Below are positions 30,933 to 64,000 of a DNA stretch of 64,000 nucleotides, one piece after another. The translations under genes were made by a program, and so were the position numbers. This DNA comes from Botryllus schlosseri (lineage: Eukaryota), in assembly GCA_051294905.1 (NCBI GenBank), contig CM119371.1, positions 40,054,001 through 40,118,000 on the forward strand, in the 5' to 3' direction. Under the pieces are notes generated by a model, which was not told where the DNA came from, ran no database searches, and saw only the letters and a list, made by a program, of their open reading frames with translations. The number at the start of each line of letters is the position of its first letter. The stretch's first letter is position 1.

Positions 30933-31172
30933 GGTAGCACGTATAGCATATACACATTTTAGCGATTTTGGTGTCGAATACCTTCTGTTCACCCACTTCT
31001 GGCCATAAGCGAAATCAAAAACCCATGACACGGCTACGTTCTAAGCCATCTTGATTTAAATCCTCATTTCTAAAATTCAAAAGGCATGTTAAAATCATGG
31101 CATATGGCATAAACCTATGAGGACATATTTCATTTCTCCATATCGTTGAGTCTTACTACGCTCTTTGTACAG

Positions 31173-31802
31173 TAGGGGTGTTCAAAGATAACATTTTTCT
31201 TCAAATTTCACTCTTTACTTGATAAATTGTAAGGTTGGCTAAAAAACTCAGCATACGAAATTTGGTTTAATTCCAACTAGTAGCCGCATTGCTACAAGAG
31301 AAGAAATATTTGGATTTATTATGTAAAAATTAAATAATTTTTTTTTCAAAATTTTGTGTTCACCCCCTAAAATTGTTAGGCTGTGAACAGAAACGATAGG
31401 CCTACTCACCAAATTTCGCTCCATTGCAACCAGTGGAAGCGGATTTATTGCAGTTCAAAAATTTGGATATGAATAAAATAGTAATCCGACCAATGTAAAT
31501 ATTATCTTATTCAAATTCAAATTTTTCAACTACAATACCGTTGCTCACACTGGTTGCAATTGAGCAAAATTTGTTGAGCATCGTTTCTGTACACAACCTA
31601 ACAACATCATGGGGTGAACAGAAATTTTTTTTTTATATATTTCTAGATAATAGCCTAAATATATAACTTTCTTCTCTTGTGGCAATGCAGCTACTGGTTG
31701 GAATGGAACGAAATTTGGTGTGCAGCCGTTAATTAGGTAACATAACAATGTTATCAACTATCCAGTATGATTTGAGAAAAGAGTCATTTTTTAACACCCC
31801 TA
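31173..31802. mobile_element. Palindromic MITE (TAGGGGTGTTCAA family)
   Basis: TIR taggggtgtt / aacaccccta, TSD ttgtacag / ctgtacag; partial relatives at 15045, 28365 and 32056. Confidence 0.85.
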
Positions 31803-33867
31803 CTGTACAGATGCTTGACAGACAAGCCATAAAACTATTAGCTATGATACACGCAATCACCAGTCACTCCTACATGTCAAAATGTTCGCATTAGATGTCG
31901 CTTCTGCATTTGACGTGGGCATACGAATCAAATTCCTTCATCCTTGCAACGATATAACATAGGAGTTGTACAAGCCATAGTCGTTAAACCAGGGTATGGT
32001 GAGTATGATGCAGTTATCCTGTATTGTTAGTAGGCCTAAACGGCATACTTGCAATAGGAGTATTCAAAAATGACTATTTTTCAAATTGTACTGGCTACTT
32101 GATAAAATTGTTACGTTGCCTAGTTGAAGGCTGCACACCAAATTTGGTTTAATTCCAAGCAGTAGCCGTATTGGTACAAGAGAACAAAGTTTTGAATTTA
32201 TTGTTTAAAAATGAATAAAAAATTTTTCAAGATTTTCTGTTCACCCGATGATATTGTTAGGTTGTCTATAAACGGTGCTCAGCAAATTTGGCTCAATTTC
32301 AACCAGTCGAAGCGAAGTTATTGCAGTCGAGAAATTTGGATTTGAATGTAATAGTATTTACGGTGGCCAGTTTGAGAATTAGCCACCTTAAATATTATTT
32401 TATTCAAATCCAAATTTTTCGACTGCAATAACTCCGCTTCCACTGTCGAGCCGTGTTACTTGCTAGTGCATTACTCACACGGCGTGTTGTGCGACAATTA
32501 CGTTGTCAAATATTGATGTAACAACAAATTTTCAGCAGCACAAATTCTCACAGTATTCGATACATTTGAACGGGAACCTGGTGTATTCCAATTAATAAAT
32601 GGCAACAGTTTTCCTAATGGTGTCGAAATTAATCATGGTAAGTACGGGGAAGCGGCGTATTGAAATTTGTAACGGTTTTTGTTATATTGATCAAGGCTTT
32701 TGTACAGTTCGACCGAGCCCCGGCTGGTATCATGATTATGCGATATTGCATTTTAATAGCTTTTTGAAAGTTGCCATCTATTGTGAATCGAGGGACGATA
32801 TGATGCAATGAAGCTCGGCACTCAACTAAATAGCGAGCTTCAGCGGCAGAGAGGCTTGACGATGTCCCCCTGGACTATAATCTTGCCCGCCAATCTGATT
32901 TGACCCTGTCGAAATATACTTATCCCTATCTGCATCGTAACCGCTGAGGTTAACGAATTCTAGAATCGTGCCAGGAAAATCCATCGTTTGGGCCGCGAAG
33001 ACGGAGACACCCTAAACATCCTAAAGTTGAATCTTCATGTCGAAATTATGTGCCTTGTATTGGATAAACCACAAGCAACAACAATGACTCCATTATGTTA
33101 ACTTACAGCTTTGGCGCTCTACGAGCCATCGATGATTTTCAGTCGGATTGGATTTGGAATTTCAATGAAGTTGTGGAACTAGGGCACCGGCTGAAGATTA
33201 GATAATAGACATATTTCGATTACATTAGCCTCAATCATGAATTACATTACATTTACGCGGCTAATCAGAGTCTCCGCCGTCAGTAATTAAGCGCTCTTGA
33301 ATACTACTATTACATAGTGCCTAGGGCCGGGCACAGTGATTAGGGTCCTACTCGAATCTGAATCGAGTATTAATTTTAATGATTCGAGTCGAGTAGTAAA
33401 AGCCAATATTTTCAGGTACTAAAATTATACGCTTCTCGCCACTGAATGAAATTTAATTTATCAACGAGAATTACAGTTTCGATACTAATTTTCACTGTTG
33501 AAGCCTTGAAACCTGGATTGGCGGTATCGTAGCATACGAAATATATAATACATAGTTACGAAGGCACATTCCGAAATAATGATTATCCCACAACATTGTC
33601 ACCAAGTGGAATGAAATGGCAATGGCCGAAAAAATACCAAAACATCATTTATGACAGTGGTCGCGGTAACGTTTTTCGACCGAAGAGCCATGTTGGCCAA
33701 ATATTTTTAATTGTCACTCCCAATGAGCCATTCATGTCAGTAAATTTTTTCGTCATAATTGAAAGTTCGTGACGTGTATTGGTAGCACTAATATATGGGA
33801 TTCGTAGTGTGGGCCTTCTGCCCACTTGGGTAGTGCAGACGAACACGGTCACTACAGCAGTACATAC

Positions 33868-34623: not shown

Positions 34624-34970
34624 TAGGCTTACCATATTTTGGAAATCTAAACAGAGGACACTTTTTCAGAAATTTGCAACTTGCAAGAACAGGTGAATTT
34701 TTCCCACTTTGTGATCGGTTGACTAAAAAAAAGGTCATTATTTCGCTCAGAGCTAAAATCACCGTTTTTCAGTCCGAAATACCCGCCGGAGCTTCACTTT
34801 TGTGCTAATTTACGGCATAACACTCGCAATTTGCTCTAAATCTGACCTAAATTTTCAGAAAAGAGGACAAAATCTCAAAAAAGAGGACAAAAGGGCGTCC
34901 TCCGAGGACACTTTCAAAAAAGTCAAAAAAGAGGACAAATCCTCTTAAAAGAGGACGTATGGTAAGCCTA
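34624..34970 (-). mobile_element. hAT MITE (TAGGCTTACCATA family)
   Basis: Perfect TIR, perfect TSD CTTAGTAA, GAGGAC repeats; close relative of 51907-52278. Confidence 0.92.
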
Positions 34971-35960: not shown

Positions 35961-36018
35961 ATATTACGTGATTCCAAATCGAATCCCTGCGGTACTCGAT
36001 TTTGCCCAGCCCTAATAG

Positions 36019-36909
36019 CAGAGTTGGTCAGTAACGAAATACTTTTACTTTTTTGAAGTACTCAAGTAGTTTTCCTCTACTTCTGGTACTTACTCAAGTG
36101 GATCTGATTTTTTCTACTTCTACTTCTACTTCGTGATATTTTGTGATTTACTTACTTACTTTTCACTATTTTCAGTTTGTCAAGTAGAAGTAGTTTTATC
36201 ATATCGTAATCTAGCAGCAGCCCACTAGGAGTCTTACTAATCTGGAAAATCCAGTTTTTTTTAACGCTACTCCTGTTTTAGCAGATCACCTTTGAAGCTT
36301 GATGGACCAAAGACATGGAATATATTTTCTGCTTTTTAGACGCGATATTTGTATTTGACTTTCAATTGCGAGTATCATACTCCGAGTTCTAATTACTTGC
36401 AGATCGTAAACTGATCGCGCAAAGTGATGAAATCGTATCCAATAAAACTTCTACGTATTGCTCTTTGCCTAAACTAGGGACCTCAAATATGGTGTAGGGC
36501 GCCATACCATGGTATTCTGTAAAACGGGGTCTTCTATTAAACAAAGGGTTAGTATCGCATTTTCATATCAATCTAGGCATATAGTTTGAATCCCATGATG
36601 TGAAAAAATGCTTATTCTGTCGAAAATTGATACCTCCTGGGATGCATCAATACTAATCCAGCTCTCTGCATCCTCCGCATCGCTCGATTCGCAGCTTTCG
36701 ACAGTCGATGCGAACGAATTAAGACTGTTTTCGAAACTACTTTCTTACTTGAGTAGATTCAAAGTCAGCCAATTCTAATTCTGCATCAAGTAGTCTTAGA
36801 TGGCTTATTGAAGAAGTACTTCTACTCGTACTTGAGTAGATTTTTTTCTTGGCTTCTTCTACTTCTACTTCTACCTGAGTAGCTTTCTTGACTACTTTGA
36901 CCACCTCTG
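36019..36909 (+). mobile_element. hAT MITE with TACTT/AAGTA repeats (CAGAG[G/T]TGGTCA family)
   Basis: TIR cagagttggtca / tgaccacctctg, TSD cctaatag / ccaaatag; related ends near 7230, 7705, 16727, 19898, 23529 and 24714. Confidence 0.8.
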
Positions 36910-42140: not shown

Positions 42141-43373
42141 AATCATAAACTGGAAATATTTTTTGCGTTCCGCGCCACTTACTTCCAGCTAGAATTTATT
42201 GTCTCTCTGTTCTTTCGCATATTTGACGTCACGTTAACGTTCATGATCCACACAAAACTGTAGTTGGCCTAATATACGAATACGACATATTCTCTTTATG
42301 GTTAGGGTTCTGGTAAAAATCCTTTTGCCTCTGCTTAAATTCACTTTTAATCGAAGCAATAATTAAAATCATGATTTTACTAATAATAAAACAATAACAG
42401 AACATGGAATAAATGAGGACCATACCAATTAATATAATGGAGCATATCGAATCAACTGAATAATTCGCAGCTCGGAGTCACCATCCCATAGTTCAAGTAG
42501 TTCAATCTCACTGGCAGAAATGGGTCGCCAGAATTGCCGTTAACCTGTTCCCAGATACGTTGAGTAGGGCAGGTGCAGGGTAGCAGGTCTGAAGGTTCTG
42601 AGTCACAAGTCAGTCTCACTTTCATAGTTTTGAGTCGAGTCATTTTCAAATTACCACCGAGTCAAGTCCTAGTCGGAGTCAGGATGTAGGACTGGCATTA
42701 TTTTTTGTGTACATATTTCATTTTTCTAGGTCAATTATACAGTTGTTACTTAAATGATGTGTGATACTCGAATACTCGACTAGACGCCGAATGCGCGATT
42801 CAGAATCGAATCCCTCAGGTAATTGATTTCGATCAGCCCTAATGTTGAGTATAGTCTGAATTATCTATAACACTAGCATATGTAGCATGAGTATCATTGA
42901 TGATATCTGGAGTAGTTTCTGGATGCGAAAAACTATGTCCTGTTTATGTACAAATGCATATGGTTATAAAATAATAAACCACATTCACACAACTCCCCAG
43001 AAAATAAAACAGCCGCAAAAATATATAAAGTCAGCGCGGAGGAATTAAATCAAATATCAAGGGTGAATGCCTGACATAAAATCGACCTAAATTAAATCCA
43101 CCCTATACATTTAATATCGGAGTGGACGGGGCAATATTGAATATTTTCCAAATACAAAACATTTCTTATAGTGCAACACGCTGTAGATTTTTCCATGGTA
43201 ATGTAGGCCTAAGTAGGCCTACATTGCAGAAGGGGGTTCTTAAATCCCGAAAACTTGAATAAAAATTGACATTACGGATGGCCCCCATTTTCCAGCTGGT
43301 GACCTCTCAATTTTTGCACACAAGGGGCTAAAAATGCACATTACCAAACTAAATTTAATATAATATATCTGAC

Positions 43374-44768
43374 CTTTGTACAAATCGTTTTGTGATTTTG
43401 AGAAGACGACGCCTGCCACGAATCGTCGCACAACGGACCATCGTTCTTCATGGAGATGTTCTTCATCGAAGCGAGAGAACTCGTTGAGATTCATTTCTGT
43501 TATAAAAATCGCTGCCAGGTATTCTTGAAGGCTTTGATGACAGAAAAACAATGTGAAATTTCCTTCCATCAAATGTTGGCTTAGTAGGTTGCTCCCCGGA
43601 ACTTTAGTCATCAAATCTTGGACTTCATCTGCCGAGATTCCAAGTTTCTTCAAGTCCCTCTTTTTGAACACGACCCGTCCTTCTCTCATGCCTCGAAATG
43701 CCAATTTCTTCAGTTTGTTGACGATCGATAAAATTTGTTCCCGATTTCGAATGTTTTCGACGCTTTGTAAAGATGATATGATCCTGCAGTATAGTTCTGT
43801 CACCGTTGTTGGAGGAGGTTTATCTGGATCCCTTCCCATCACAACTGCCGTAAGAATCAGAAAAACGGGCACAGAGATTAAATTGATCAATCTTGGTGAC
43901 ATAGTCTCAATTTTCTGCCAGAGGTCCTCACCATTCTCTTGGAGTAAAAATGCAAATAACCTATGCGCGTCATCATACGTAAGGCCATTCAGCGTGATGA
44001 TGGTTTCGGGTCGCGCCATCGCCGGTAACTCTGAAACCTTGAACTCGCGCGAAGCTATGTAGACATTAACGTGACGCAGGATATTCCGGGATAAAATGTT
44101 GTACATGACTGTCCCGCAGCTTGCTTTTTCGTGCTTTTTCATTTTGCGTGGATTTTTCTCAAAATGCCACCTTGCTTGATCAAGTCCGTCGAATATGAGG
44201 AGTGCATCGGATTGATGTTGATCCAGCCATTTGAATGCCTGATCCTCTTCAAATTCACTTTCGAAGAGCCCTCCAAATAAAAATTTGGATGGTTTAATCT
44301 TGCCCTTCACTTCAACGTCTTTCAATTCAATATAATGGACCATTATTTTACCGAAAGAGGGCAGATCTTCAAAATGCTCAATTTCGCAAGATGCGCCGAG
44401 AGCTCTTCGAGCTATTCTGCGTGTAAGTGTGGATTTTCCCGATCCTGCAGATGCCACAATAGCGGTTATACCCACAGTTGCTGATAAGCCTGATTTTTTC
44501 TTTTGCCACATGGATGCCACTACGTCCTCGATCCCGACATCTTTCGCTTCAATCGTGTCTTTCCGAAAAAATCCAACTTCCTGTGTCAGCTGGTTATGGC
44601 CATGGCGACCTTTGTAATAATCATCAACGTCAACGCGACGCATCTGTGGGTAAACTTCAAAGTCAGGTTGCTGAAGCTTTTCATGTCGAAAGTCATCAAG
44701 GATACCAATGGCCGTCACATCCATAGTATTTTCGTTGCAAATTTGTATGAGTTTTGTGTAGCTTATAT
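43374..44768 (-). CDS. NACHT-domain (NLR-like) protein, large internal phase 1-1 exon
   Basis: Walker A ASAGSGKST, Walker B LLIFDGLDQ, sensor IASR, ISVPVFL, winged-helix FCHQSLQEYLAA; acceptor ccttcttttcag at 44769, donor gtcaga at 43373; open throughout. Confidence 0.93.
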
Positions 44769-46121
44769 CTGAAAAGAAGGTAATATTTCAAATCTACTAC
44801 TACGAACCAGAGCCATCCTTTCTTGTATCGCAATTCGACTGCGCATCAACTTTCAAATGCGACTAGCAATGAGGTCCGGCAGATTTGCAATGATTCGAGT
44901 CATAACTTGAGTTAATGTATGTATCGACTCGACTTGTATTCGAGTCATTGCGCAAGAATCGACACATGTTACATGACTTATTCGAGTCAGATATATCAGT
45001 CAGTGTTGGGATGACTCGAGTCACCTTTTTCGTGTGACTTGACTTGACTCTAGTCACTTTGCAATAGTGACTTGACTCGAAGTTTCAAAAATCCGGATTG
45101 AATCGTGACTCGAAGCAAAATTTACGAGTCAATTTCAGATCATTAAGTAATCGATATCGACTAAGTCGCTGTATCTTGTATAAGTTCAAATTGTGCGAAC
45201 GATACGTCGGTGTGATCTGTGAGAGCAGCCAATTACTCAATGGTTGTACGTTTTACCGAGCCTCAGTAGTAGGGTTTGGTCAAATTGTTGCCCGCCAATC
45301 AGAGAGCGCCACGTCATCCTAATTGCCACGCCCATTTTCATCCCCTAAGGGTACATTCATCTGATACGTCATCTGTGCCACATCATCAAGCGCCACGCCT
45401 ATAGTGCCACATTATCCATCCATTGCTATATCATCACTGCATTGATTGCCGCATCTTGATACTTTTCTCAGATATTGTATTATGTGTATTTAGGACTAAT
45501 ATCATCCGTCCATATTTTTTAAACTTGATTTTATGTGTATAAGTTACGGTTTCTGCAGTTTCCACATTTTAGGACTTATGATTGCCGCGTCAAAACTTAC
45601 CTTGGCTAGAATCGACAGATATTGTATTATGTGTATTTAGGACTATGTATTTAAATTCCTACATGAATGCGAAAACTATGATGTCTATGCAAGGCTATAT
45701 TCTCCGGATAATATTATTATTATGAAAATTCTACACATCATCACTAATTACTTAATATAAAATGCGATTTTGAGCGCTGCGACTTGATAATATCAATCCC
45801 TACGCTTCTGATGCATGATTTTTTGTGATAAGGACCTAGGTAACATTCAGAGTCTGCAACGATTGTTTGGATATACATTATAGCAATACCCCACCAAACT
45901 ATAGGCGGTTATATTACTCTATTGGTCAGAGATAACTCATCCGTCCATATTTTTAAATTTGATTTTATGTCTACAAGTTACGGTCTCTGCAGCCTCCACA
46001 TTTTACGACTTATTTTCATTAGACGCAGGCAAGCGATTCTCCAGCTCGGAGCTACGAAAACAAATCACTTGCATGTGCGCGTTCCGAATAGTCTTGTAGA
46101 ATTTTCTAAAGTCGTAACAGC

Positions 46122-46251
46122 TTAGTAGCATATACGCGAATCCCAAGGCGAAAATTATCAAACGAACTATAGCCGCCGGCGTGCGAAGCTTCAGTAGAAT
46201 ATACGCAAATCCCAAGGCGAAAATAATCGAACGAAGTTTAGCCGCAGGCGC
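46122..46251 (+). repeat. Two tandem copies of a ~70-bp unit
   Basis: agtagcatatacgcgaatcccaaggcgaaaa...agccgc repeated. Confidence 0.8.
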
Positions 46252-46627
46252 GAGATTCGCCGGGCTCTAATTATACAAACACTCTCTCTGCCTGTACGCG
46301 AACCCTAGCGTTATAACGACATGGTCTGATTAGCGCATTCTGAAACCATAAATTTATTCAACTTCATTGAGATAGCCATGATTTAAAGATGGTAATCGAG
46401 TGTGACAATAGCACTCGTCAAGGTTATACAAACATAACCTTAAACTAATCTTTACTTCATAACATATAAGGTTATAAAAGTAAGCAGATTTGTATGAAAG
46501 CACGCTACATAGAAGTGAAAGTAGTCTGGAAACATAACTACTTACTGAAAAATCGTTACGTAGAAGTGGGGTTAGTCTACAAATATAACCACTAGCTTAC
46601 TTTGAAATCTCTACTTGTACTTGTATT

Positions 46628-47214
46628 GGAGCAGAATTGTGACCGATACATTAATGATTTTAATACTCTGTATTTTAAATTACCCACACCTTTGAGTCGA
46701 AATGTTCTTAAGTAACTCATGTTTTCAATATCACCTAAACGCAAAGTTCCAAAATTTCCATGTTGATCAAATACCACAAACTTTGCTTGCTTTCAGACTT
46801 AGTAACAAAGCGCATAACAGATTTCACCTAAATAAGTCGGTACTCCGAAAATTTTGTAAATTAGAGCTTTTCGGTGATGGACTTAAGTTCCAATGCACAA
46901 GTGTTCACGTAGGTTCGAATGGAGCAGAATTGTGACCGATGCATTAATGATTTTAATACGTACGTATTTTAAATTACCCACGCCTATGAGTCGAAATTTT
47001 CTTAAGTAACTCATGTTTTCAATATCACCTAAACGCAAAGTTCCAATATTTCCATGTTGATCAAATACCACAAATTTTGCTTGCTTTCAGACTTGGTAAC
47101 AAAGCGCATAACAGAATTCACCTAAAAAAGTCGGTACTCCGAAAATTTTGTAAATTAGAGCTTTTTGGTGATGGACTTAAGTTCCAATGAACAAGTGTTC
47201 ACGTAGGTTCGAAT
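46628..47214 (+). repeat. Tandem duplication of a ~294-bp unit, mirrored from 63468 to 64000
   Basis: ggagcagaattgtgaccgat at 46628 and 46921; both units end gttcacgtaggttcgaat. Confidence 0.9.
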
Positions 47215-50200
47215 CCCACACCCAGAACGTTTTACGAGAATTAACATTTTTAGATTCAAATAGAGCATATTGAGTATTAGAGGCGTTTACACTATGGAGT
47301 TCGTAAGCTTTGCTTGAGTTTTTTAAATTAAGGTAGAAGTAGCCATTTCCGAGTAAGTAAAACGTTAGTATTTTAGGTTCATTTCTGCTTAATACAATAA
47401 TCATCGTGGTGTTGAAGCAGTCCAATATCATTTACACTTGAAAGAATTTGTTGCGTGCAGCTAAAAACCTAATTGAGTACTCTGAAGAAGTACAAGTAGC
47501 ACAGTTTGTGGTGTTTGTATGACATCAAAATTTACGTACTTTTCGCTTACCTTATGTTAATAGTGTTCCTCGTCTATCTACTTTATAAGATTTAGTGTAG
47601 AAATTCAGTAGAAATGTAAACACGCTTGAATATGAGTAAAACTCATTACACTATTACACTACAGCATTACACTATGACTGATTATTTCAATTAGCAAGCA
47701 TAATAGATCATCACCTAATGAATGCAAGGACGAGTTCGCAAGTGGAAAATAAGTCAGATCGCTCGAAATAATAGTCCCGAGTTGCGTAAAGATAATGTTC
47801 TCCCCGTAGCTGAGATCAAGGTTTGCAATTTCGCCTATGGGAATGAGGTATTAGAAAATACCAATTCGAGAGGTTCTCTACTAGATAGTGCCTATAGCTT
47901 TCAATACCACAAACTTTGCTTGCTTTCAGAGCCGGCAACTAAATTCAAGACAGACTTTACGCAAAACTTGCTATTCTGAAAATTTTGTCAAGGTAATGGT
48001 TTAAAAACTTATACTTGAGCACTACGAAATGTACAAGTACTTTATCTTTACACGACGTTTTTTGTAAAATGAATACTAATTTTATTGAAAAAATAAAAAA
48101 GAGCGAAAAATTACATTTTATCCCGAAACGCAACAAGAAAAATCGTATGAATTTGTAAACTACTTATTCATGACATAATAATAATTCTACTTGTACACTT
48201 TTTCACATTTTATAACACTTTGAGTAGTACTTAACAGTTTCAGTTTTAAATAAAATACGGAATATAAACTAATCGAAAAATTCGGTAACCAATTTCGCGT
48301 AGGCTATGCATACAAATGAGGAAAGTTACATCAACGCGTGTTAAACTAGTTGTATCGAGATATCGAATGATTTTTTCCTTCATCAAAACAACTAGAATGT
48401 GTAACTACATTTAAAAAACGTATCTAAATGAGCTCCAGGGCATTGTGATTATGCAGCCTACCAAATTTCATCACACATTTCATGATGGAGCAACTTTAAA
48501 ACTAACGCAGTTCTATAGCAACTTTTACCTAAATCTGTCTTCGGTAGAGTGTAAATATACATAGTCAGCTTTAATAACAGAATTACCATGCTAATATGTG
48601 ACTCCCCACCTTGAAACTTGATACGTAGTTGTAGGACATTGTGATGATGCGGCATACCAAATTTCCTCACGCATTTCATAACGGAGCAACTTTAAAACTA
48701 ACGCGGCTCTACATCGACTTTTTGCCTACAGCTGTTTTGCGGGGAGGGGCGTATAGCACGTACCTATACATAGTCAACTTTAACAACGGAATTACCGTGC
48801 TTAACATTGAATCCCAACTCTAAACTTGATACGTAGTTGTGGGACATTATGGCAATGCACCATGCTAAATTTCATCACACATCCAATGATGGAACACCTT
48901 TAAAACTAACGCAGTCGAATACCGACTTTTACGCATATCTGTTTTGCGTGAACATAGCATATACCTAAACATAGTCAATTTTAATAGCAGAATTGCCGTG
49001 TTAAACATTGAATTCTCACCATGAAAGTTGGTACGCGGTTATAGGAGGCTATAACAATGCGCCATACCAAATCCCATCACACATTTCATGATGGAACAAC
49101 TTTAAAACTAACGCGGCTCTACATCGACTTTTTGCGTACATCTGTTTTGTGGGAGCGTATAGCACGTACCCATACATAGCCAACTTTAATAACGGAATTA
49201 CCATGCTTAACATTGAATCCCAACTCGATACTTGATACGTAGTTGTAGGACATTATGGCAATGCACCATGCTGAATTTCATCACACATCTAATGATGGAA
49301 CACCTTTAACACTAACGCAGTTCTATACCAACTTCGCAGGAATCTGTTTGCGGGAGCGTAGCACGTACCTATGCGTGATCAACTTTAGTGATGGAATTAC
49401 AGATGTAATTAAGTTTCAACACTTTTACAACGATTCGTCTTGCTTCCTATAACATCCCACTCGACGCCCTCTTTATTAGGCTGTAATCTCAGCCTGAGCT
49501 ATGTCTTGAAGCCTACGGGACTCTGCAAATTGTTTCGATTTATTCTCTCCGTTTCAATTCAAGATAAGGAAGCCCATTTCACTCAAAATATCGATGCCTA
49601 CGGTACTCTACAAAATTTTCTGATTAATTCTTCCTATGCTTATTTATCATAAGAAAGATGATTTGACACCTAAAGTACGAAATACTTGTTCGCTTGAGCT
49701 AAGCCGCAGCGCTCGGAGTGGAATTTACTAACGCAGTCGAATACCGACTTTTACGCATATCTGTTTTGCGTGAACATAGCATATACCTATACTTAGTCAA
49801 TTTTAATAGCAGAATCACAATGCTAAACATTGAATTCCCACCTTGACAGTTGATACGCGGTTACAGGACATGACAACAATGCACCATACCAAATTCCGTC
49901 GCACATTTCATGATGGAACAACTTTAAAACTAACGCGGCTCTACACCGACTTTTTGCGTACATATGTTTTGTGGGAGCGTATGATAACACGTACCCATAC
50001 ATAGTCAATTTTAATAACGGAAATACCATGCTTAACATTGAATCCCAACTCGAAACTTGATACGTAGTTGTAGGACATTATGGCAATGCACCATATCAAA
50101 TTTCGTCACACATTTCATGATGTAACACCTTTAAAACTAACGCAGTTCTCTACAGACTTTTGCGTAAATCTGTTTTTCGGTAGCGTAGCACGTACCTATA

Positions 50201-51906
50201 CATAGTAAGCTTCAATAACGGAAGTACCATGCTAATAATCAAATCCCCACCCTGAAACTTTGTACGCATGCAGTTGTAGGACATAATGAAAATACACCAT
50301 ACCAAATTTCGTCAGACATTTCATGATGTAGCACCTTTAAAACCAACGCAGTTCTATACCGACTTTTGACTAAATCTATTTGTCCGTAGCGTAGCACGTA
50401 CCTATACAGTATACATAGTCAACTTTAATAACGGAATTACCATGTTGATAATTGACTCCCCACCTTGAAACTCGGTACACTGTAAAAAATAAAGGTGGAT
50501 TTTAGGGTGGAATTAGGGAGGAAATATTGTTTCCACTCATGATCAAGGGAGGGTGACTATAATACACCTCCTGAAAGGTGATATCCTCCTTTCCACCCCT
50601 GTTTGACAGTGGATGATGAATCCGCCTATACGCGTGAGGTGCGCATACGGGGTTGTTGTCGCGAAATTTAATGCGTGCGCCCAAGGTGGCTGGTTAAACA
50701 CACATATGAAGGCCGGAAGGACATTGGTATGTAATATGTGACCCTCATATCGGTGCACAGAGACAGCGAGATAATAGTTATAAGCCAACCGCGCAACCGT
50801 GCACATAATCATTGAATGAAAATCTCTATCTTCATTGCGGGGAGCAGATATTTGTTCAATGTTCAGTTTGAAAGTGTTGGAATCAACAATTATTCAATCG
50901 CCCGTTGGTCGTCCGCTGTACTAGTAGTTCGTCCGTTACTATATAGGTTACTACGTATGTTAGTTATATGCCGTTACCGTATATAGTTAGAAGTTTGTTG
51001 TTGCCATTGTTACGGTGCGAGTTACTAGGTCTGTGATTTTTACTGTGACGTCAGAATGATACAGACGGTGAATGAAATCGTCAGACTGATGCCTGCTTCT
51101 GATTGGTTGTTGTATCACTAAAAAGTTCGGGTGGTAAAAAGATGGCGCCGACAACACAGTTGTCTTCGACAAATTTTGTAGTAAGAGAAGCGAGTTTTTG
51201 TGAGTCCATGGAGTATACGAGAGGGAGATAGTTGGCTTTGGATTATGGATTGGCGTTGTGATGCTTGTATTAGAAATGCGTTATCGTGTTGGACATACTT
51301 GCCCAGCCTGTCAAGTCTTCGGCTGTGAAATTGGATCGTGCAATCACATTGCCACGGCATGCAACAGCTACAGATGCCATTTAGATTCTCATCACATGAC
51401 GGTGCAGGCCAGATACCAGCTATTCATGAGCATTTGCTAATCAATCTGTCTGTTTAGGTAGCCATGAAATTGTTAGTTAAGCTATCAAATTATTGTCCGC
51501 TGATTACTGTCGACGACGCTTCTGAGATAAGAAGAGAGGTTTCGGAAATACACAAAGGTGAACTCCATGATCGTGACTTCAAAATCCAGTGTTATGACAG
51601 AAGATTAGGCCAGTATCTAGATCTGGAGTATGCGGATGTCGGAGATGATGACGTCTTCAAAGAGGACATTGCAATATGTCAAGTAATTGTAAGTAAGCAC
51701 ACACTGAATTCACATCATTTACTTGCTGCTAGCTGAACATTTTTTAGTAGTCCAATTCTAGTGCGATAGTCGTTACATTTCTATTGTCGAATTTATCCAG
51801 CGTATAATCCACTGGTAGCCGTGGCCCGTCGGTATACAGTTTTGTAGGACCGAATTCTGCAGTACGCTTCTTGTTTTGTAATGCCACCCCTGGTCTGCTC
51901 ATATAC

Positions 51907-52278
51907 TAGGCTTACCATACGTCCTCTTTTGAGAGGATTTGTCCTCTTTTTTGACTTTTTTGAAAGTGTCCTCGGAGGACGCCCTTTTGTCCTCTTTTTT
52001 GAGATTTTGTCCTCTTTTTTGAAAATTTAGGTCAGATTTAGAGCAAATTGCGAGTGATATGCCGCAAATTAGCACAGAAGTGAAGCTCCGGGGGGTATTT
52101 CGGAGTGAAAAACGGTGATTTGAGCTCTGAGCGAAAAGGTGATTTTTTTTTTTTTTTAGTCATCCACCTGGAAATGTGGAGAGAAAAACGGTATTTTGAG
52201 AATTCTACTCCGGTTTTGCAAGTTTTAAATTTCTGAAAAAGTGTCCTCTTTTTAGATTTCCAAAATATGTTAAGCCTA
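51907..52278 (+). mobile_element. hAT MITE in intron 1 of the accessory gene
   Basis: TIR taggcttaccata / tatgttaagccta, TSD tcatatac / ccatatac. Confidence 0.88.
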
Positions 52279-52909
52279 CCATATACCTGCTTTTGATTGC
52301 GTTTGCGTAATATTGATAGTATATTGACTCTTGCTGGTGCGAGACAACATTGTTGTGTTTAAGAACTACGATTGGTTGTGTGTCGCACGTCCAACAGCTT
52401 TCAAAAATGCTTCATGAAGACTAAGTTTCGGTGTCACTGTACTGAATGTCCTATCAAGTTAATTTGAATTATTCCACGCCCGCAAAAGTAAAGTATATGC
52501 ATATTGCATATTGTATATCCACACAAGTGCATGCCATCTCACAGTTTGAAAAGCAATGCTGCAAAGCCAATTTTGGTTCCGTCAGTATTCCTTGCTCCCA
52601 TAAGTACACATCTCTTTACCCAGGTAAATATTGCATTGCCGAGAAAATGAGTGATCCATTGGATGTGCTGTCGGAAATCGCCCTCAATTCGACGCCAGGT
52701 ACTCATGACAGAAACGACAGTTCTGGTGAGTTATACTAAATTTTGAACTGAGCTGTTGGTTTTAACAGAACTTACGATCTCGTCAATTATGCAATCAAGT
52801 AATTAATTGTGATCCATTATTTGCCATATGTGCTCATTAGTCATGTTCAATTGTACAGCAATCAACATCCGGACTTGCCATGAGTTTTTGTGCCGTTTTT
52901 GATCTATGC

Positions 52910-53112
52910 CAGGGGGATCAACCTGTAGCCTTAGAAGCCGATATGAATAAATAGGTGAGCTCGGAGTATAAAATAAATGGACATAATCGACAATTTAATG
53001 CGGATATTTGGCTTCAAGTTGGTGCATTACGACTGTGCGCTGGAATGCGGCCGCATGCTGTTTTAATATTAGGAAATCAGGCCGTGAATAGCAAAAAGGT
53101 TGGTCAACCCTG
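52910..53112. mobile_element. Small hAT MITE in intron 2 of the accessory gene
   Basis: cagggggatcaacct / aggttggtcaaccctg, TSD atctatgc / atctacac. Confidence 0.65.
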
Positions 53113-56100
53113 ATCTACACCAATGCCTCCATAGCAAACAACACACTTATGCTCTGTAAGTTAGTTGTATTTTGTATTACAGAATCTGACGATCTGGACT
53201 GGATGGTTACATTGGTTAGTCTACCTGCCATTTTCCTCAAAAATAAACTTCTTCCTGTCTGATCAGGTACGAATATTTATCGATATTATCAAGCAGTTGT
53301 TTGATTTGAAGTATACATAATTCGGGACTGTCAGAACGATTCGACAGTCCTAGTCGAACTTTGCATTTTATAGCAACTATGTAATTGTAGTTTAAACACA
53401 TTTTTTCAACGGTATACATCCCATTGCTATTAAATCGTTTTTAGTCTGGCAGCCTTTCATAACTAATCATTTGGCTGGGAATTCGACAGCAGAGCAGTCA
53501 TATTTTTTACAGCTGCAACCGATGAAATAAGATCAGATAAGGGCATTTGAATATTTACTCCTTCTCAAACGCCCTGCTGTTGACAAGCCCGTGCACCCTT
53601 TTCATCGCAGTCGCAGTGAAGCAGTGGTGTACAAATGGCGTTTCGCAAAGCAATTTCTGGGTGTCCACACACTCAATTGGCAACATGAATGATAACCTAA
53701 TTTTTAGGCCCAGATTCAGATCATCACGCCGTATATTTAGGCGATTACAAGTATATAAGTGGTGATCTGCAAGCTATGTTAGTGTTATATACTTCAAGTG
53801 GACATCTTGAGTAGTACAGCTTTTTCAAAAAGTAGAACTAAACGCATAATTTTAGCTGTATTTCGAAGGTGGCCACTTTTCAACTCGATAGATGCATATT
53901 CGCAACTTACTCAATATGAGTAATAACATGACAGTTGCAGTAAAACAGAGTTACAAATTTAAAAACTTTTGAGGGTGTCCAGCCCGCAGGACTGGACGGT
54001 CAAAAAGAGGTCGGCATGGTGACGATAAAAAGTTGGTGTCAGCGTGAGCTGCTGACTAACACCTGGTTGTCAAGTCCATCTAATGTTCATATACCCGAGC
54101 CAGAGGCGTTAAACGCAGTTAACAAGGCTATACTGAAGTAGAAGTAGGAAGACATAATTTTACTCGGTACGAGTTATGTTGTAAACCAGCTACAAGTAGA
54201 AGTAGTTTGACAGTCTTTTGATACTACTCAAGTGAGCATGTATTTTTGAATAGTTATAATACACTGCCAATATGTATGTTTGACCTGTTTCACAATACCA
54301 AACCTTTCTTCAGATGCCCAGATCAGCCTACCTTACAATTTGTTCTGCTGTGGAAAAGAAGAAGTGGGCCATCTACTTTGATGGGGAGACAGTCCGAGAT
54401 ATCAACAGCTTCCATGAGGAATTTGCAGTGATGCTTTCAGTCTACTGGATATTCGACATACAGTTTTCGACAAACATCAGAAATTCCCTCACTTTCATGT
54501 CAGTTCTAGCACACTGTTGAAAGAGATGAGTTCTGCTGTTCGCACCAAACTTGGTAAAATCTGGGACTAATTTGAAAATAAAGTTTTGGAATAAAGGCGA
54601 TGTTGTGATTTATGTCAACGTGGATTATGAAGATTTAATTTAGATGTTGTGCGCATCGAAGTCGTTTGACGAAGATATCCGGATAGGACGAGGTGGTATC
54701 TGGATAGGCTGATGAGGTGGTTTACCGATAGCATAGGGGAGGAAAATTTTCCACCTAAAATAGGTGGGGGAGCCCACCACCCTTTACGAGTGGAGAAAAT
54801 ACCACCTCCTTTGGGTGATTTTTGAAACACCTCTGTAAGGTGGCCACAGTTTTTACAGTGTACGCAGTTGTAACACAATGCACCATGTCAAATTCGGTTA
54901 CGCATTTCATGATTGAACAACTTTAAAACTAGCGCAGTTCGACACCGACTTTTGCGGGAGAGTAGCATGTACCTATGCATAATCAACTTTAATAACGAAA
55001 TTACCATGCTAAACATTGAATGCGCAACTTGAAAATTGGTTCACAGGTGTAGGACATTATGACAATGGAACATATCAAATTTCATCACACATTTCATGAT
55101 GGAACACCTTTAAAACTAACGCAGTTCTATACCGATTTCACGTGAATCTGTTTGCGGGAGCGTAGCACGTACCTATGCGTAGTCAACTTTAATGACGGAA
55201 TTACAGATGTAATTAAGTTTCAACACTTTTACAATGATTCGTCTTGCTTCCTATAACATCCCACTCGAAGCCCTCGTTATTAGGTTATGATCTCAGCCTG
55301 AGCTATGTCTTGAAGCCTACGGGAATCTGCAAATTGTTTCGATTTATTCTGTCAGTTTCAATTTAAGATAAGGGAACCCATTTCACTCAATGTATCGATG
55401 CCTACGGTACTCTACAAAATTTTCTGATTAATTCTCCCTATGTTAATTTATCATAAGAAAGATGATTTGAATCCTAAAGTACGAAATACTTGTTCGCTTG
55501 AGCTGAGCCGCAGCGCTTGGAGTGGAATTTTACGAGGTATGTGGACTCATTTCGAAGGGCTCTATGCCATAGGAGCATACTTTACGCTCCAATTTGACTC
55601 CCATACATTCCATATAGTTACTAACAAAACCATTGAGTACCAGCCTGGAAATTTCGCGTAGCACTAGATGGCATGTATACAATTTCATGACATCCGACAG
55701 TACGACGGAGACTATCAAAATATCGACAGAAGCCCTCTATTCTTTTCTGAAATAATCAAGGTTTTATCAGGACTTCCCTTCATATAAACTCCAGCAGAAT
55801 CACTAATAACCTCTCAAGTTTACTCAATTTACTCTAATTTGACACTCGAGTACTTAATCCCTATTTTCCGCAAGTATGATACAGGCTATCGCTCGATACT
55901 CAACGATTCGTAATTTTGCTGGAATACAAGTACAATTAGGGATTAAAAAGTAACTAATATAGGTGGTTATGTTTGTAGATTATTTACACTTCTATACTTA
56001 CCGGTTTTTCAGGAGAAACTACCTACTTTTAGGACTTTATATTTTAAAGTAGCTTGAGGTTACGTTTGTATCACTTTGACAAGTGCTATCATCAAAAACT

Positions 56101-59100
56101 GCTTTTGCTAAACTCTTACACTTTCACTAAACTTCTACACTGAATCTTGTAAAGTAGATAGAAGAGGAAAACTACTATCATAAGGTAAGTGAGAAGCACG
56201 CAAATTTTGATCGCATACAAATGCCACAAACCGCGCTAACTTTCAGAGTTGTTAAGTATAGAAGTAGTCGTACTTCTTGAGAATACCCAAGTAGGTTTTT
56301 TGCCTACATGCACCAAATACTCTCAAGTCCTTATTGGAGTACATCAACTTCATGATAGCTACAGTATAAAACAGAAATAGACCTAGAGTACTAACGTTTT
56401 ACTTACTCGGAAATGACTGCTTCTACCTTATTTCAAAGGATTCCTCGTTCGGAGCGAAATTTTATGGGGTTTTGGATAATATCCAAGATGTAGGCTCACT
56501 TTGAAGGGTACTTCGTAAAACTTAAATATTGCGCAGTGAGAGTTCGCAAATTCTCGAAGTATTTTTGTTATTTTTATTGCGATAAGTCATTCTGCGGCGC
56601 GAAAATGCGTCGTCGGATATAGAGGAAACTAGCAGCACTCATCAAGACCACTGAAAACAGTACATTTCAACATTTAGTAGCAGTAAATTTCTAGTAAAGT
56701 ACAAGAAGTGATGATTTCCGAGAGAGTTAAAAAGTAAGTATTGAAGGTATAGTTTGCTCTAAAACCGTAAAACTCTGAAATAGAAGTAGATGCAGTGTAG
56801 ATAGTTAATCACTTCATTCAGTATAGCGCAATCAGGCCAAACCTATACTTGAGTACTCCAAAGTGTACAAGTACTGTGCTATGTACTCCCTCCACGTAAA
56901 AAGTGACTAGAGTTTAGAGTACTTTATCGGTACTTGACAGTTTCAGTTTTAGATAAAATTCAGTTAAGACTTTAAATTTTAAAGTAGTTTGAGCTTACGT
57001 TTGTATCACCTTGACAAGTAACATTATCAGACATGAAAATGATATTATAACCTAATACAGAAGTGAACACACGTCAATGTGCTTCGGAATTCACGAGAAA
57101 TTGCTTACTAAGAGAAGTATATTCTTGTATACACAATAGTGGAGAGAATCTTTAAAATGTAGTAAGCAGGCCGATGGGTATTCGTTGAGTTGTATAAGCA
57201 TAAAAAAACATTCCCGCGCGCTCCTAAACCTAACACTTCCTAACCCACCACCACCTAATACTAAGACGCGCGCGGGAATGTTTTTTTATGCTTATACAAC
57301 TCAACGAATACCCATCGGCCTGCTTACTACATTTTAAAGATTCTCTCCACTATTGTGTATACAAGAATATACTTCTCTTAGTAAGCAATTTCTCGTGAAT
57401 TCCGAAGCACATTGACGTGTGTTCACTTCTGTATTAGGTTATAATATCATTTTCATGTCTGATAATGTTACTTGTCAAGGTGATACAAACGTAAGCTCAA
57501 ACTACTTTAAAATTTAAAGTCTTAACTGAATTTTATCTAAAACTGAAACTGTCAAGTACCGATAAAGTACTCTAAACTCTAGTCACTTTTTACGTGGAGG
57601 GAGTACATAGCACAGTACTTGTACACTTTGGAGTACTCAAGTATAGGTTTGGCCTGATTGCGCTATACTGAATGAAGTGATTAACTATCTACACTGCATC
57701 TACTTCTATTTCAGAGTTTTACGGTTTTAGAGCAAACTATACCTTCAATACTTACTTTTTAACTCTCTCGGAAATCATCACTTCTTGTACTTTACTAGAA
57801 ATTTACTGCTACTAAATGTTGAAATGTACTGTTTTCAGTGGTCTTGATGAGTGCTGCTAGTTTCCTCTATATCCGACGACGCATTTTCGCGCCGCAGAAT
57901 GACTTATCGCAATAAAAATAACAAAAATACTTCGAGAATTTGCGAACTCTCACTGCGCAATATTTAAGTTTTACGAAGTACCCTTCAAAGTGAGCCTACA
58001 TCTTGGATATTATCCAAAACCCCATAAAATTTCGCTCCGAACGAGGAATCCTTTGAAATAAGGTAGAAGCAGTCATTTCCGAGTAAGTAAAACGTTAGTA
58101 CTCTAGGTCTATTTCTGTTTTATACTGTAGCTATCATGAAGTTGATGTACTCCAATAAGGACTTGAGAGTATTTGGTGCATGTAGGCAAAAAACCTACTT
58201 GGGTATTCTCAAGAAGTACGACTACTTCTATACTTAACAACTCTGAAAGTTAGCGCGGTTTGTGGCATTTGTATGCGATCAAAATTTGCGTGCTTCTCAC
58301 TTACCTTATGATAGTAGTTTTCCTCTTCTATCTACTTTACAAGATTCAGTGTAGAAGTTTAGTGAAAGTGTAAGAGTTTAGCAAAAGCAGTTTTTGATGA
58401 TAGCACTTGTCAAAGTGATACAAACGTAACCTCAAGCTACTTTAAAATATAAAGTCCTAAAAGTAGGTAGTTTCTCCTGAAAAACCGGTAAGTATAGAAG
58501 TGTAAATAATCTACAAACATAACCACCTATATTAGTTACTTTTTAATCCCTAATTGTACTTGTATTCCAGCAAAATTACGAATCGTTGAGTATCGAGCGA
58601 TAGCCTGTATCATACTTGCGGAAAATAGGGATTAAGTACTCGAGTGTCAAATTAGAGTAAATTGAGTAAACTTGAGAGGTTATTAGTGATTCTGCTGGAG
58701 TTTATATGAAGGGAAGTCCTGATAAAACCTTGATTATTTCAGAAAAGAATAGAGGGCTTCTGTCGATATTTTGATAGTCTCCGTCGTACTGTCGGATGTC
58801 ATGAAATTGTATACATGCCATCTAGTGCTACGCGAAATTTCCAGGCTGGTACTCAATGGTTCTGTTAGTAACTATATGGAATGTATGGGAGTCAAATTGG
58901 AGCGTAAAGTATGCTCCTATGGCATAGAGCCCTTCGAAATGAGTCCACATACCTCGTAAAATTCCACTCCAAGCGCTGCGGCTCAGCTCAAGCGAACAAG
59001 TATTTCGTACTTTAGGATTCAAATCATCTTTCTTATGATAAATTAACATAGGGAGAATTAATCAGAAAATTTTGTAGAGTACCGTAGGCATCGATACATT

Positions 59101-59279
59101 GAGTGAAATGGGTTCCCTTATCTTAAATTGAAACTGACAGAATAAATCGAAACAATTTGCAGATTCCCGTAGGCTTCAAGACATAGCTCAGGCTGAGATC
59201 ATAACCTAATAACGAGGGCTTCGAGTGGGATGTTATAGGAAGCAAGACGAATCATTGTAAAAGTGTTGAAACTTAATTA

Positions 59280-62236
59280 CATCTGTAATTCCGTCATTAA
59301 AGTTGACTACGCATAGGTACGTGCTACGCTCCCGCAAACAGATTCACGTGAAATCGGTATAGAACTGCGTTAGTTTTAAAGGTGTTCCATCATGAAATGT
59401 GTGATGAAATTTGATATGTTCCATTGTCATAATGTCCTACACCTGTGAACCAATTTTCAAGTTGCGCATTCAATGTTTAGCATGGTAATTTCGTTATTAA
59501 AGTTGATTATGCATAGGTACATGCTACTCTCCCGCAAAAGTCGGTGTCGAACTGCGCTAGTTTTAAAGTTGTTCAATCATGAAATGCGTAACCGAATTTG
59601 ACATGGTGCATTGTGTTACAACTGCGTACCGAGTTTCAAGGTGGGGAGTCAATTATCAACATGGTAATTCCGTTATTAAAGTTGACTATGTATACTGTAT
59701 AGGTACGTGCTACGCTACGGACAAATAGATTTAGTCAAAAGTCGGTATAGAACTGCGTTGGTTTTAAAGGTGCTACATCATGAAATGTCTGACGAAATTT
59801 GGTATGGTGTATTTTCATTATGTCCTACAACTGCATGCGTACAAAGTTTCAGGGTGGGGATTTGATTATTAGCATGGTACTTCCGTTATTGAAGCTTACT
59901 ATGTATAGGTACGTGCTACGCTACCGAAAAACAGATTTACGCAAAAGTCTGTAGAGAACTGCGTTAGTTTTAAAGGTGTTACATCATGAAATGTGTGACG
60001 AAATTTGATATGGTGCATTGCCATAATGTCCTACAACTACGTATCAAGTTTCGAGTTGGGATTCAATGTTAAGCATGGTATTTCCGTTATTAAAATTGAC
60101 TATGTATGGGTACGTGTTATCATACGCTCCCACAAAACATATGTACGCAAAAAGTCGGTGTAGAGCCGCGTTAGTTTTAAAGTTGTTCCATCATGAAATG
60201 TGCGACGGAATTTGGTATGGTGCATTGTTGTCATGTCCTGTAACCGCGTATCAACTGTCAAGGTGGGAATTCAATGTTTAGCATTGTGATTCTGCTATTA
60301 AAATTGACTAAGTATAGGTATATGCTATGTTCACGCAAAACAGATATGCGTAAAAGTCGGTATTCGACTGCGTTAGTAAATTCCACTCCGAGCGCTGCGG
60401 CTTAGCTCAAGCGAACAAGTATTTCGTACTTTAGGTGTCAAATCATCTTTCTTATGATAAATAAGCATAGGAAGAATTAATCAGAAAATTTTGTAGAGTA
60501 CCGTAGGCATCGATATTTTGAGTGAAATGGGCTTCCTTATCTTGAATTGAAACGGAGAGAATAAATCGAAACAATTTGCAGAGTCCCGTAGGCTTCAAGA
60601 CATAGCTCAGGCTGAGATTACAGCCTAATAAAGAGGGCGTCGAGTGGGATGTTATAGGAAGCAAGACGAATCGTTGTAAAAGTGTTGAAACTTAATTACA
60701 TCTGTAATTCCATCACTAAAGTTGATCACGCATAGGTACGTGCTACGCTCCCGCAAACAGATTCCTGCGAAGTTGGTATAGAACTGCGTTAGTGTTAAAG
60801 GTGTTCCATCATGAAATGTGTGATGAAATTTGATATGTTCCATTATCATACTGTCCTACACCTGTGAACCAATCTTCAAGTTGCGCATTCAATGTTTAGC
60901 TCGGTAATTCCGTTATTAAAGTTGAGTATGCATCGGTACGTGCTACGCTCCAGCTAAAGTCGGTATGGAACTGCGTTAGTTTTAAAGTTGTTCAATCATG
61001 AAATGCGTAACAAAATTTGACATGGTGCATTGTCATAATGTCTTACAACTGCGTACCGAGTTTCAAGGTGGGGAGTCGATTATTAACATGCTAATTCCGT
61101 TATTGAAGTTGACTATGTATAGGTACGTGCTACGCTACGGAAAAACAGATTTAGCCAAAAGTTTGTATAGAACTGCGTTGGTTTTAAAGGTGTTACATCA
61201 TGAAATGTCTGACGAAATTTGGTATGATGCATTTTTATTATGTCCTACAACTGCGTACCAACGTTCAAGGTGAGAATTTAATGTTTAGCATGCTAATTCT
61301 GTTATTAAAATTGACTATGTATGGGTATATGCTATGTTCACGAAAAACAGATATGCGTAAAAGTCGGTATTCGACTGCGATAGTTTCAAAGGTGTTCCAT
61401 CATTAGATGTGTGATGAAATTCAGCATGGTGCATTGCCATAATGTCCTACAACTACGTATCAAGTATCGAGTTGGGATTCAATGTTAAGCATGGTAATTC
61501 CGTTATTAAAGTTGGCTATGTATGGGTACGTGCTATACGCTCCCACAAAACAGATGTACGCAAAAAGTCGATGTAGAGCCGCGTTAGTTTTAAAGTTGTT
61601 CCATCATGAAATGTGTGATGGGATTTGGTATGGCGCATTGTTATAGCCTCCTATAACCGCGTACCAACTTTCATGGTGAGAATTCAATGTTTAACACGGC
61701 AATTCTGCTATTAAAATTGACTATGTTTAGGTATATGCTATGTTCACGCAAAACAGATATGCGTAAAAGTCGGTATTCGACTGCGTTAGTTTTAAAGGTG
61801 TTCCATCATTGGATGTGTGATGAAATTTAGCATGGTGCATTGCCATAATGTCCCACAACTACGTATCAAGTTTAGAGTTGGGATTCAATGTTAAGCACGG
61901 TAATTCCGTTGTTAAAGTTGACTATGTATAGGTACGTGCTATACGCCCCTCCCCGCAAAACAGCTGTAGGCAAAAAGTCGATGTAGAGCCGCGTTAGTTT
62001 TAAAGTTGCTCCGTTATGAAATGCGTGAGGAAATTTGGTATGCCGCATCATCACAATGTCCTACAACTACGTATCAAGTTTCAAGGTGGGGAGTCACATA
62101 TTAGCATGGTAATTCTGTTATTAAAGCTGACTATGTATATTTACACTCTACCGAAGACAGATTTAGGTAAAAGTTGCTATAGAACTGCGTTAGTTTTAAA
62201 GTTGCTCCATCATGAAATGTGTGATGAAATTTGGTA
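59280..62236 (-). repeat. ~148-bp satellite in the right arm (mirror image, four extra units, no transposon)
   Basis: Reverse complement of 48460-55210 plus a 591-bp segment at ~60812-61402. Confidence 0.9.
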
Positions 62237-64000
62237 GGCTGCATAATCACAATGCCCTGGAGCTCATTTAGATACGTTTTTTAAATGTAGTTACACATTC
62301 TAGTTGTTTTGATGAAGGAAAAAATCATTCGATATCTCGATACAACTAGTTTAACACGCGTTGATGTAACTTTCCTCATTTGTATGCATAGCCTACGCGA
62401 AATTGGTTACCGAATTTTTCGATTAGTTTATATTCCGTATTTTATTTAAAACTGAAACTGTTAAGTACTACTCAAAGTGTTATAAAATGTGAAAAAGTGT
62501 ACAAGTAGAATTATTATTATGTCATGAATAAGTAGTTTACAAATTCATACGATTTTTCTTGTTGCGTTTCGGGATAAAATGTAATTTTTCGCTCTTTTTT
62601 ATTTTTTCAATAAAATTAGTATTCATTTTACAAAAAACGTCGTGTAAAGATAAAGTACTTGTACATTTCGTAGTGCTCAAGTATAAGTTTTTAAACCACT
62701 ACCTTGACAAAATTTTCAGAATAGCAAGTTTTGCGTAAAGTCTGTCTTGAATTTAGTTGCCGGCTCTGAAAGCAAGCAAAGTTTGTGGTATTGAAAGCTA
62801 TAGGCACTATCTAGTAGAGAACCTCTCGAATTGGTATTTTCTAATACCTCATTCCCATAGGCGAAATTGCAAACCTTGATCTCAGCTACGGGGAGAACAT
62901 TATCTTTACGCAACTCGGGACTATTATTTCGAGCGATCTGACTTATTTTCCACTTGCGAACTCGTCCTTGCATTCATTAGGTGATGATCTATTATGCTTG
63001 CTAATTGAAATAATCAATCATAGTGTAATGCTTATGTGAGTTTTACTCATATTCAAGCGTGTTTACATTTCTACTGAATTTCTACACTAAATCTTATAAA
63101 GTAGATAGACGAGGAACACTATTAACATAAGGTAAGCGAAAAGTACGTAAATTTTGATGTCATACAAACACCACAAACTGTGCTACTTGTACTTCTTCAG
63201 AGTACTCAATTAGGTTTTTAGCTGCACGCAACAAATTCTTTCAAGTGTAAATGATATTGGACTGCTTCAACACCACGATGATTATTGTATTAAGCAGAAA
63301 TGAACCTAAAATACTAACGTTTTACTTACTCGGAAATGGCTACTTCTACCTTAATTTAAAAAACTCAAGCAAAGCTTACGAACTCCATAGTGTAAACGCC
63401 TCTAATACTCAATATGCTCTATTTGAATCTAAAAATGTTAATTCTCGTAAAACGTACTGGGTGTGGGATTCGAACCTACGTGAACACTTGTTCATTGGAA
63501 CTTAAGTCCATCACCAAAAAGCTCTAATTTACAAAATTTTCGGAGTACCGACTTTTTTAGGTGAATTCTGTTATGCGCTTTGTTACCAAGTCTGAAAGCA
63601 AGCAAAATTTGTGGTATTTGATCAACATGGAAATATTGGAACTTTGCGTTTAGGTGATATTGAAAACATGAGTTACTTAAGAAAATTTCGACTCATAGGC
63701 GTGGGTAATTTAAAATACGTACGTATTAAAATCATTAATGCATCGGTCACAATTCTGCTCCATTCGAACCTACGTGAACACTTGTGCATTGGAACTTAAG
63801 TCCATCACCGAAAAGCTCTAATTTACAAAATTTTCGGAGTACCGACTTATTTAGGTGAAATCTGTTATGCGCTTTGTTACTAAGTCTGAAAGCAAGCAAA
63901 GTTTGTGGTATTTGATCAACATGGAAATTTTGGAACTTTGCGTTTAGGTGATATTGAAAACATGAGTTACTTAAGAACATTTCGACTCATAGGTGTGGGT

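Follow-up and report, generated by a model that had tools for sequence, protein, structure and literature searches.

A CCTAA-rich stem-loop on the axis of a multi-copy palindromic element in Botryllus schlosseri: the probable turning point of an ancestral strand fold-back

The stem-loop at positions 57205-57284 of a 64,000-nucleotide stretch of Botryllus schlosseri DNA (hereafter the window) lies on the axis of a giant palindrome, the arms of which are 99.9% identical over at least 6.1 kb and carry no genes. The palindrome is probably a roughly 15-kb mirror-image mobile element present in many copies, and the loop at its centre is probably an inherited turning point, the spot where a strand of an ancestor doubled back on itself. 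The apex offers a clue, open to test, as to how the element arose and is copied, and any present function of its sequence is putative.

The 80-mer is built exactly as the initial annotation had described it, with a GC-rich stem closing a 46-nt loop that holds four CCTAA motifs and a single G. The stem has 17 bp (57205-57221 paired with 57268-57284, both halves given on the plus strand) and includes the two 13-mers singled out in that annotation, which map to 57209-57221 and 57268-57280; its left half ends in a self-complementary (GC)n run. The loop (57222-57267; A17 C19 G1 T9) is non-palindromic, C-rich on the plus strand and G-rich on the minus strand, where the GG/GGG tracts noticed earlier were counted as seven G-runs, six GG and one GGG. 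The 17-bp stem is predicted on either strand with the loop essentially open (folding z -9.2 and -7.0), and no fold is predicted for the loop alone. When the loop was shuffled 200,000 times, four CCTAA motifs turned up once; within the window, the loop is the sole 46-nt segment with four of them, and the loop motif occurs a single time within the 64-kb window when up to three mismatches are allowed. The 12 bp of stem adjoining the loop rank 7 in duplex stability among 2,346 arm windows (top 0.3%). No Rfam family was matched in 45000-64000.

The term 'telomere-like', applied to the loop in the initial annotation, is a loose label. Local alignment of the loop to telomere-type arrays exceeds that of shuffles (P 0.0005-0.003) and the four CCTAA motifs go beyond chance, but CCCTAA is absent, TAACCC occurs once, and the loop aligns to arrays of four distinct units with nearly the same scores (17-18). 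Similarly, the GG tracts from which a two-tier G-quadruplex was envisaged are present, but the potential is ordinary: the G4Hunter-type mean of the loop is 0.78 and its best 25 nt reach 1.08, 12 regions of the window, apex included, score as high in such a scan, and the two-tier GG pattern makes up 29 clusters across the window. The usual threshold of this scoring scheme is 1.2. With one GGG, the loop has neither the four G3 tracts nor the score of at least 1.2 expected of a canonical G-quadruplex.

Alignment of the left arm (46682-57221) against the right arm (57268-64000), with a 4,383-bp insertion set aside, covered 6,142 bp and revealed 8 mismatches, three of which lie at the edge of a 13-bp indel, leaving five clean substitutions. 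In addition, the alignment has a 591-bp gap within a 202-bp tandem array. The innermost 1,594 bp form a perfect mirror, and the inner left arm as a whole (54861-57221, plus strand, 2,360 bp) shows one mismatch to the right arm. The outer left arm (45265-50477, plus strand) mirrors 59628-64000 over its portion 46682-50477, and 45265-46681 is unpartnered inside the window; the right arm (plus strand) leaves the window, with its end predicted near 65,400. The insertion, a later event found in the left arm only (50478-54860), has 11-bp CACTG-type inverted ends and a duplicated TA, and from its end motif we take it to be CACTA/EnSpm-like. Inside it, a 370-bp repeat (51907-52278) recurs at 34624-34970, and short frames are present.

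The likely left terminus of the element is at 45265-45464 (plus strand), where AGTAGTAG, containing a Maverick-type (AGT)2 motif, opens a GCCAC-rich stretch. This is the sole such 8-mer on the plus strand of the window, and the 200 nt after it contain GCCAC five times against 0.12 expected. Since AGTAGT occurs 28 times on the plus strand of the window, it is the position that points to 45265 as the left end. Counted from there, the arm is predicted to be about 7.6 kb long, with the right end near 65,400 and a total length of 15.2-15.8 kb.

The longest stop-free frames in the arms reach 77-95 codons (95 in the right arm) compared with a shuffle median of 99, and no recombinase or nuclease frame was found in the arms. 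Tandem 202-bp arrays are located at 48437-50478, 54860-55204 and 59285-62258, with units about 75% alike. Both arms carry a higher-order duplication of 1.4 kb (58959-60377 and 60378-61790 in the right arm, with 131 differences in 1,405 bp), and the right arm also contains 294-bp repeats. In the outer left arm, tandem pairs of 69 bp and 294 bp were seen at 46119-46250 and 46627-47214, respectively. Modules of 46400-48260 and 55900-58580 (outer and inner arm regions) are 71-93% alike in opposite orientation, which may mean that an old inverted duplication underlies each arm.

Sequencing runs with part of 55600-58900 come from eight studies (20 of 24 runs listed), and no RNA run is listed as holding any of it. 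Four runs were compared over 57132-58031, namely X1, X2, X9 and the RNA run X23; X1 is probably the source sample and hence not independent. The comparison covers 40 of 131 variant rows, 12 of 28 indel rows, 20 of 319 loose ends and 24 of 9,239 pieces. In the contig sets of X1, X2 and X9, which belong to different studies, all 30 of 30 bins are covered, the loop included. The apex loop is not unique to this locus and is multi-copy across samples. A single X9 contig with a loop shorter by 2 nt has a depth of 3,357, and five of the eight listed X9 pieces have depths of 42-65, which places this one variant at roughly 50-80 times the low-copy depth, an order of magnitude since depth is no copy number. 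The shorter loop accounts for 24%, 55% and 73% of the depth at 57247 in X1, X9 and X2, respectively, and its letters create one more CCTAA. The lengths of clamp and loop differ among copies, with GC-run and A/T-run variants affecting the right stem half (57267, 57281). Both stem halves are contained in a pair of X1 contigs, about 90% identical to each other, that begin at 57178-57181 and end at 57286, with fewer than 31 letters to the right. In one X2 contig, the sequence turns to other letters outside the stem, 19 nt from its GC end. These were considered as a second arm type, which was rejected, as they match the repeat at 36168-36187; the contig is more likely an insertion junction. That stretch, which abuts the apex stem in this one contig, belongs to an ACTTCT-rich repeat at 36010-36900.

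The multi-copy loop in other samples and the diverged copies that keep both stem halves agree with the initial suggestion of a mobile-element part recurring at palindrome centres. They argue against the other suggestion made there, an eroded telomere trapped by fusion at this locus, which we rejected: the loop is multi-copy in three contig sets, the tandem perfect telomere units of a fusion junction are missing (no CCCTAA, one TAACCC), and the arms reach a likely transposon-type end. The ratio of loop-bin depth to median arm depth is 0.18 in X1, 0.35 in X9 and 1.13 in X2, compared with 0.5 expected if every copy had the apex loop. Therefore, judging from X1 and X9, many arm-bearing copies may have other centres. 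In the RNA run X23, of which about 6 in 100 reads were sampled, 39 reads were placed, 37 of them partly, and none on the loop, which is uninformative either way.

One class of contigs departs from this pattern. In X9, eight contigs share a loose end (median 14 letters) that crosses the shorter loop, reaches GCGC and from there departs from the stem sequence. This continuation is one loose-end consensus among 20 of 319 loose ends, with its end given by the longest contigs alone, and it is not telomeric. By its sequence, the class looks like the unfolded parent of the element, or it may be a damaged copy. The initial annotation had held that occurrence of the loop elsewhere without a conserved stem would count against its reading; the diverged copies retain both halves, but this contig class lacks the stem and to that extent goes against it. 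A CCAAT-type motif at 45294-45301, near the likely left end of the element, resembles the last 9 or so letters of the X9 continuation, a likeness that may be chance.

Searches of other collections returned nothing akin to the element. In the viral contig collection, the end motif gave no match, the loop patterns gave none, and the stem pattern was found at four loci, each pairing over a single additional base and lacking CCTAA between the stem halves, which were taken as chance. The loop patterns were likewise absent from the metagenome contigs, where a looser pattern yielded 21 loci (L005-L025), none with a stem of more than 10 bp. Most of these lie on GC-rich contigs (58-71% GC) in which short telomere-type arrays occur interstitially, and they have no relation to the element. 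No phage match was obtained.

We propose, and rate somewhat better than an even chance, that this gene-less palindrome is a Maverick/Polinton-dependent element, that its apex was inherited as the junction left by a fold-back, and that the apex acts as a passive hairpin turn. A (GC)n run reads the same as its reverse complement, and a pair of these runs with 46 nt between them therefore already constitutes an inverted repeat. At such a pair, a single strand of a parent element would have snapped back, and its extension would have used one arm as the template of the other. Inverted duplications in yeast are reported to centre on natural inverted repeats of 3-15 bp, and a 5-bp repeat with a 35-bp spacer was used in wild-type cells (PMC10622511). 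A GC clamp on the axis is thus expected from the founding fold-back priming alone and requires no present function.

At present, according to this model, protein-primed strand displacement from either end would free a strand, which would zip into a full hairpin up to the GC clamp. The hairpin would restore a double-stranded end for the polymerase of a helper, this end would be reopened, and the integrase of the helper would insert the duplex, with no cut needed at the apex. The helper gene, the free DNA and the hairpin are postulated parts of the model. The loop might have been kept long by selection, as a long loop would resist host hairpin nucleases; Mre11 is described as cutting loops of more than 12 nt less well (PMC10622511). 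The scheme is the panhandle model of protein-primed replication, for which direct evidence is described as still lacking (PMC11886824).

The element is not an autonomous Maverick, as it has neither the genes nor a unique core; it probably belongs among the non-autonomous Maverick derivatives. The (AGT)2 motif is described as the commonest Maverick end motif in vertebrates (PMC8097293), and AGTAGTAG at 45265, a boundary placed by position, agrees with the 5'-(AGT)2 or (AG)3 left end of Maverick/Polinton elements. Similar to these, as they are described in PMC8097293 and bioRxiv 10.1101/2023.08.22.554363, the element has (AGT)2 at its likely left end and a predicted size inside 13-25 kb. It differs from them in that genes for pPolB, integrase and the capsid module are missing from the arms, the stop-free frames of which are too short at the lengths given above, and in that, in place of a unique core flanked by terminal inverted repeats of 100-1,500 bp, it has 46 unique nucleotides between arms of about 7.6 kb, mirrored over at least 6.1 kb.

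Like the fold-back inverted duplications that form at short inverted repeats (PMC10622511), the element is a long palindrome that has a short inverted repeat at its centre, the two halves of which stand a few tens of bases apart. It differs from these, and from the palindromes of Tetrahymena rDNA and Streptomyces linear plasmids, in being a dispersed, heritable mobile family and not a one-off rearrangement or a programmed amplification. By analogy, the element may work like a fold-back, helper-dependent derivative of a protein-primed replicon. Symmetrical adenovirus minichromosomes and a yeast hairpin plasmid linked to pGKL1 are hairpin or inverted-dimer derivatives of such replicons, the plasmid reportedly described by Kikuchi in 1985 (cited in PMC4443254). 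These resemble the element in having an end duplicated by fold-back, a gene-less, helper-dependent palindrome and a small loop, but they are extrachromosomal, whereas the element here is known as an integrated one in many copies. A possible link to Crypton/CryptonV elements found no support in the literature consulted. Among the papers listed in the literature search, which did not extend to Repbase, none dealt with palindromic non-autonomous Mavericks or ascidian foldbacks. In the main text of the nematode Polinton preprint (bioRxiv 10.1101/2023.08.22.554363), the words palindrome, hairpin and non-autonomous do not occur.

The private changes of this copy bear on how its arms are kept alike. 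At 22 places, drawn from 40 of 131 variant rows, most of the depth in X1 and X9 differs from the window. The window allele is absent from X9 at 10 of the 22, and all 10 are mirrored in both arms. The private change is at least 1.5%, compared with 0.08% between the arms, a difference of about 36-fold per arm. Therefore, the common ancestor of the two arms is far younger than that of this copy and its family. A distant population may be the origin of X9. The mirrored alleles fit hairpin copying and chromosomal gene conversion between the arms equally well. The 88 nt of 57204-57291 are free of variants in the same 40 of 131 rows, an outcome with a probability of 0.27 at the arm rate, so no excess conservation of the apex is demonstrated. 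The comparison of loop orientations (flip/flop) advised in the initial annotation is meaningless across copies, because identical arms leave the loop without a reference direction; to score an inversion of the loop, a single locus is required at which a marker, such as the 4.4-kb insertion, tells the arms apart.

Among the alternatives, a dedicated cis-site at the apex is unlikely. A protein would bind the CCTAA repeats or the open G-rich loop and nick, resolve or prime there, and the element would cycle between a hairpin monomer and an inverted dimer. Four CCTAA motifs in 46 nt are far from chance, the letters of the shorter variant add another, the clamp belongs to the most stable 0.3% of the arm, and the listed variants avoid the apex; but the last observation has the probability just given and covers 40 of 131 variant rows, the lengths of loop and clamp vary, and the arms have no recombinase or nuclease frame. 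Known protelomerase sites, moreover, are near-perfect palindromes across their axis. The apex shares with these sites and with telomere fusion junctions a skewed, TTAGG-like stretch on a palindrome axis, and differs in having no perfect unit, many dispersed copies, an asymmetric 46-nt spacer and no resolvase gene. With clamp and loop lengths variable and one contig class continuing past the loop without the stem, the hairpin origin or resolution site of the initial annotation is not demonstrated.

It is equally doubtful that the element is a foldback cut-and-paste transposon (Mutator/FB-like or of another DDE type), in which an internal deletion between GC microhomologies would have left the loop behind as a neutral remnant and chromosomal gene conversion would keep the arms alike. 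Long modular arms with tandem sub-repeats are the design of FB elements, and the element has such long inverted arms of tandem sub-repeats. FB, TU and FB-like Mutator foldbacks also share with it a small centre. The insertion and the indels found in one arm only show that the copy has sat in place, which speaks for this reading. However, the likely terminus is of AGTAGT type, a Maverick-like end motif, and the arms are several times longer than usual in foldbacks.

A bolder form of the Maverick reading has a similarly low chance of being right. In it, the element would be a Maverick satellite cut down to two ends and the 46-nt turn, travelling as a terminal-protein-linked hairpin of half length, covalently closed at the loop, that alternates with the integrated inverted dimer, and the CCTAA-rich loop would mimic telomere DNA so that host telomere-binding proteins shield the tip. 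If true, such a hairpin-travelling satellite would supply, from nature and in an animal, the panhandle or hairpin intermediate that models of protein-primed replication have long put forward, and free Maverick DNA could readily be probed with it.

Less likely again is that telomere repeats were captured once in the founder, when a broken linear element was healed by or fused with telomere DNA, folded back, decayed and spread. The alignment of the loop to telomere-type arrays is better than that of shuffles, which speaks for it, but the alignment does not single out one of the four units, CCCTAA is absent, the degenerate form is common to many copies, and the stemless X9 contigs do not run into telomeric letters. 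That the palindrome arose by a single fusion of chromosomes at this place, or as a fold-back error of the assembly, is highly improbable: the perfectly mirrored inner 1,594 bp would suit it, but independent studies contain the loop in many copies, there are contigs that span both stem halves, and one arm differs from the other by five substitutions, two indels and the 4.4-kb insertion, which carries a target duplication of its own; these one-sided differences rule out a fold-back of reads or assembly.

To our knowledge, no one has yet watched a Maverick copy itself in an animal. The element, present in many copies and made up of arms except for one non-palindromic tag of 46 nt, offers a specific probe for hairpin intermediates, and mirrored private alleles offer a means to separate fold-back copying from gene conversion.

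The window around the element is repeat-rich animal DNA of mostly 34-42% GC. Its only long frame (43240-44787, minus strand) encodes a protein with NACHT and NOD2-type winged-helix domains and lies about 480 bp to the left of the likely element end. Eleven of the 12 homologues of this frame are unnamed (41-52% identity), and the named one, from the tunicate Clavelina, is 29% identical. A satellite of 36/71-bp units occupies 10908-15029, with about 113 units and 24% GC. In addition, smaller imperfect palindromes with a self-match of 65-85% are found at 1222-1789, 22774-23353 and 31166-31809, and these are probably miniature inverted-repeat elements.
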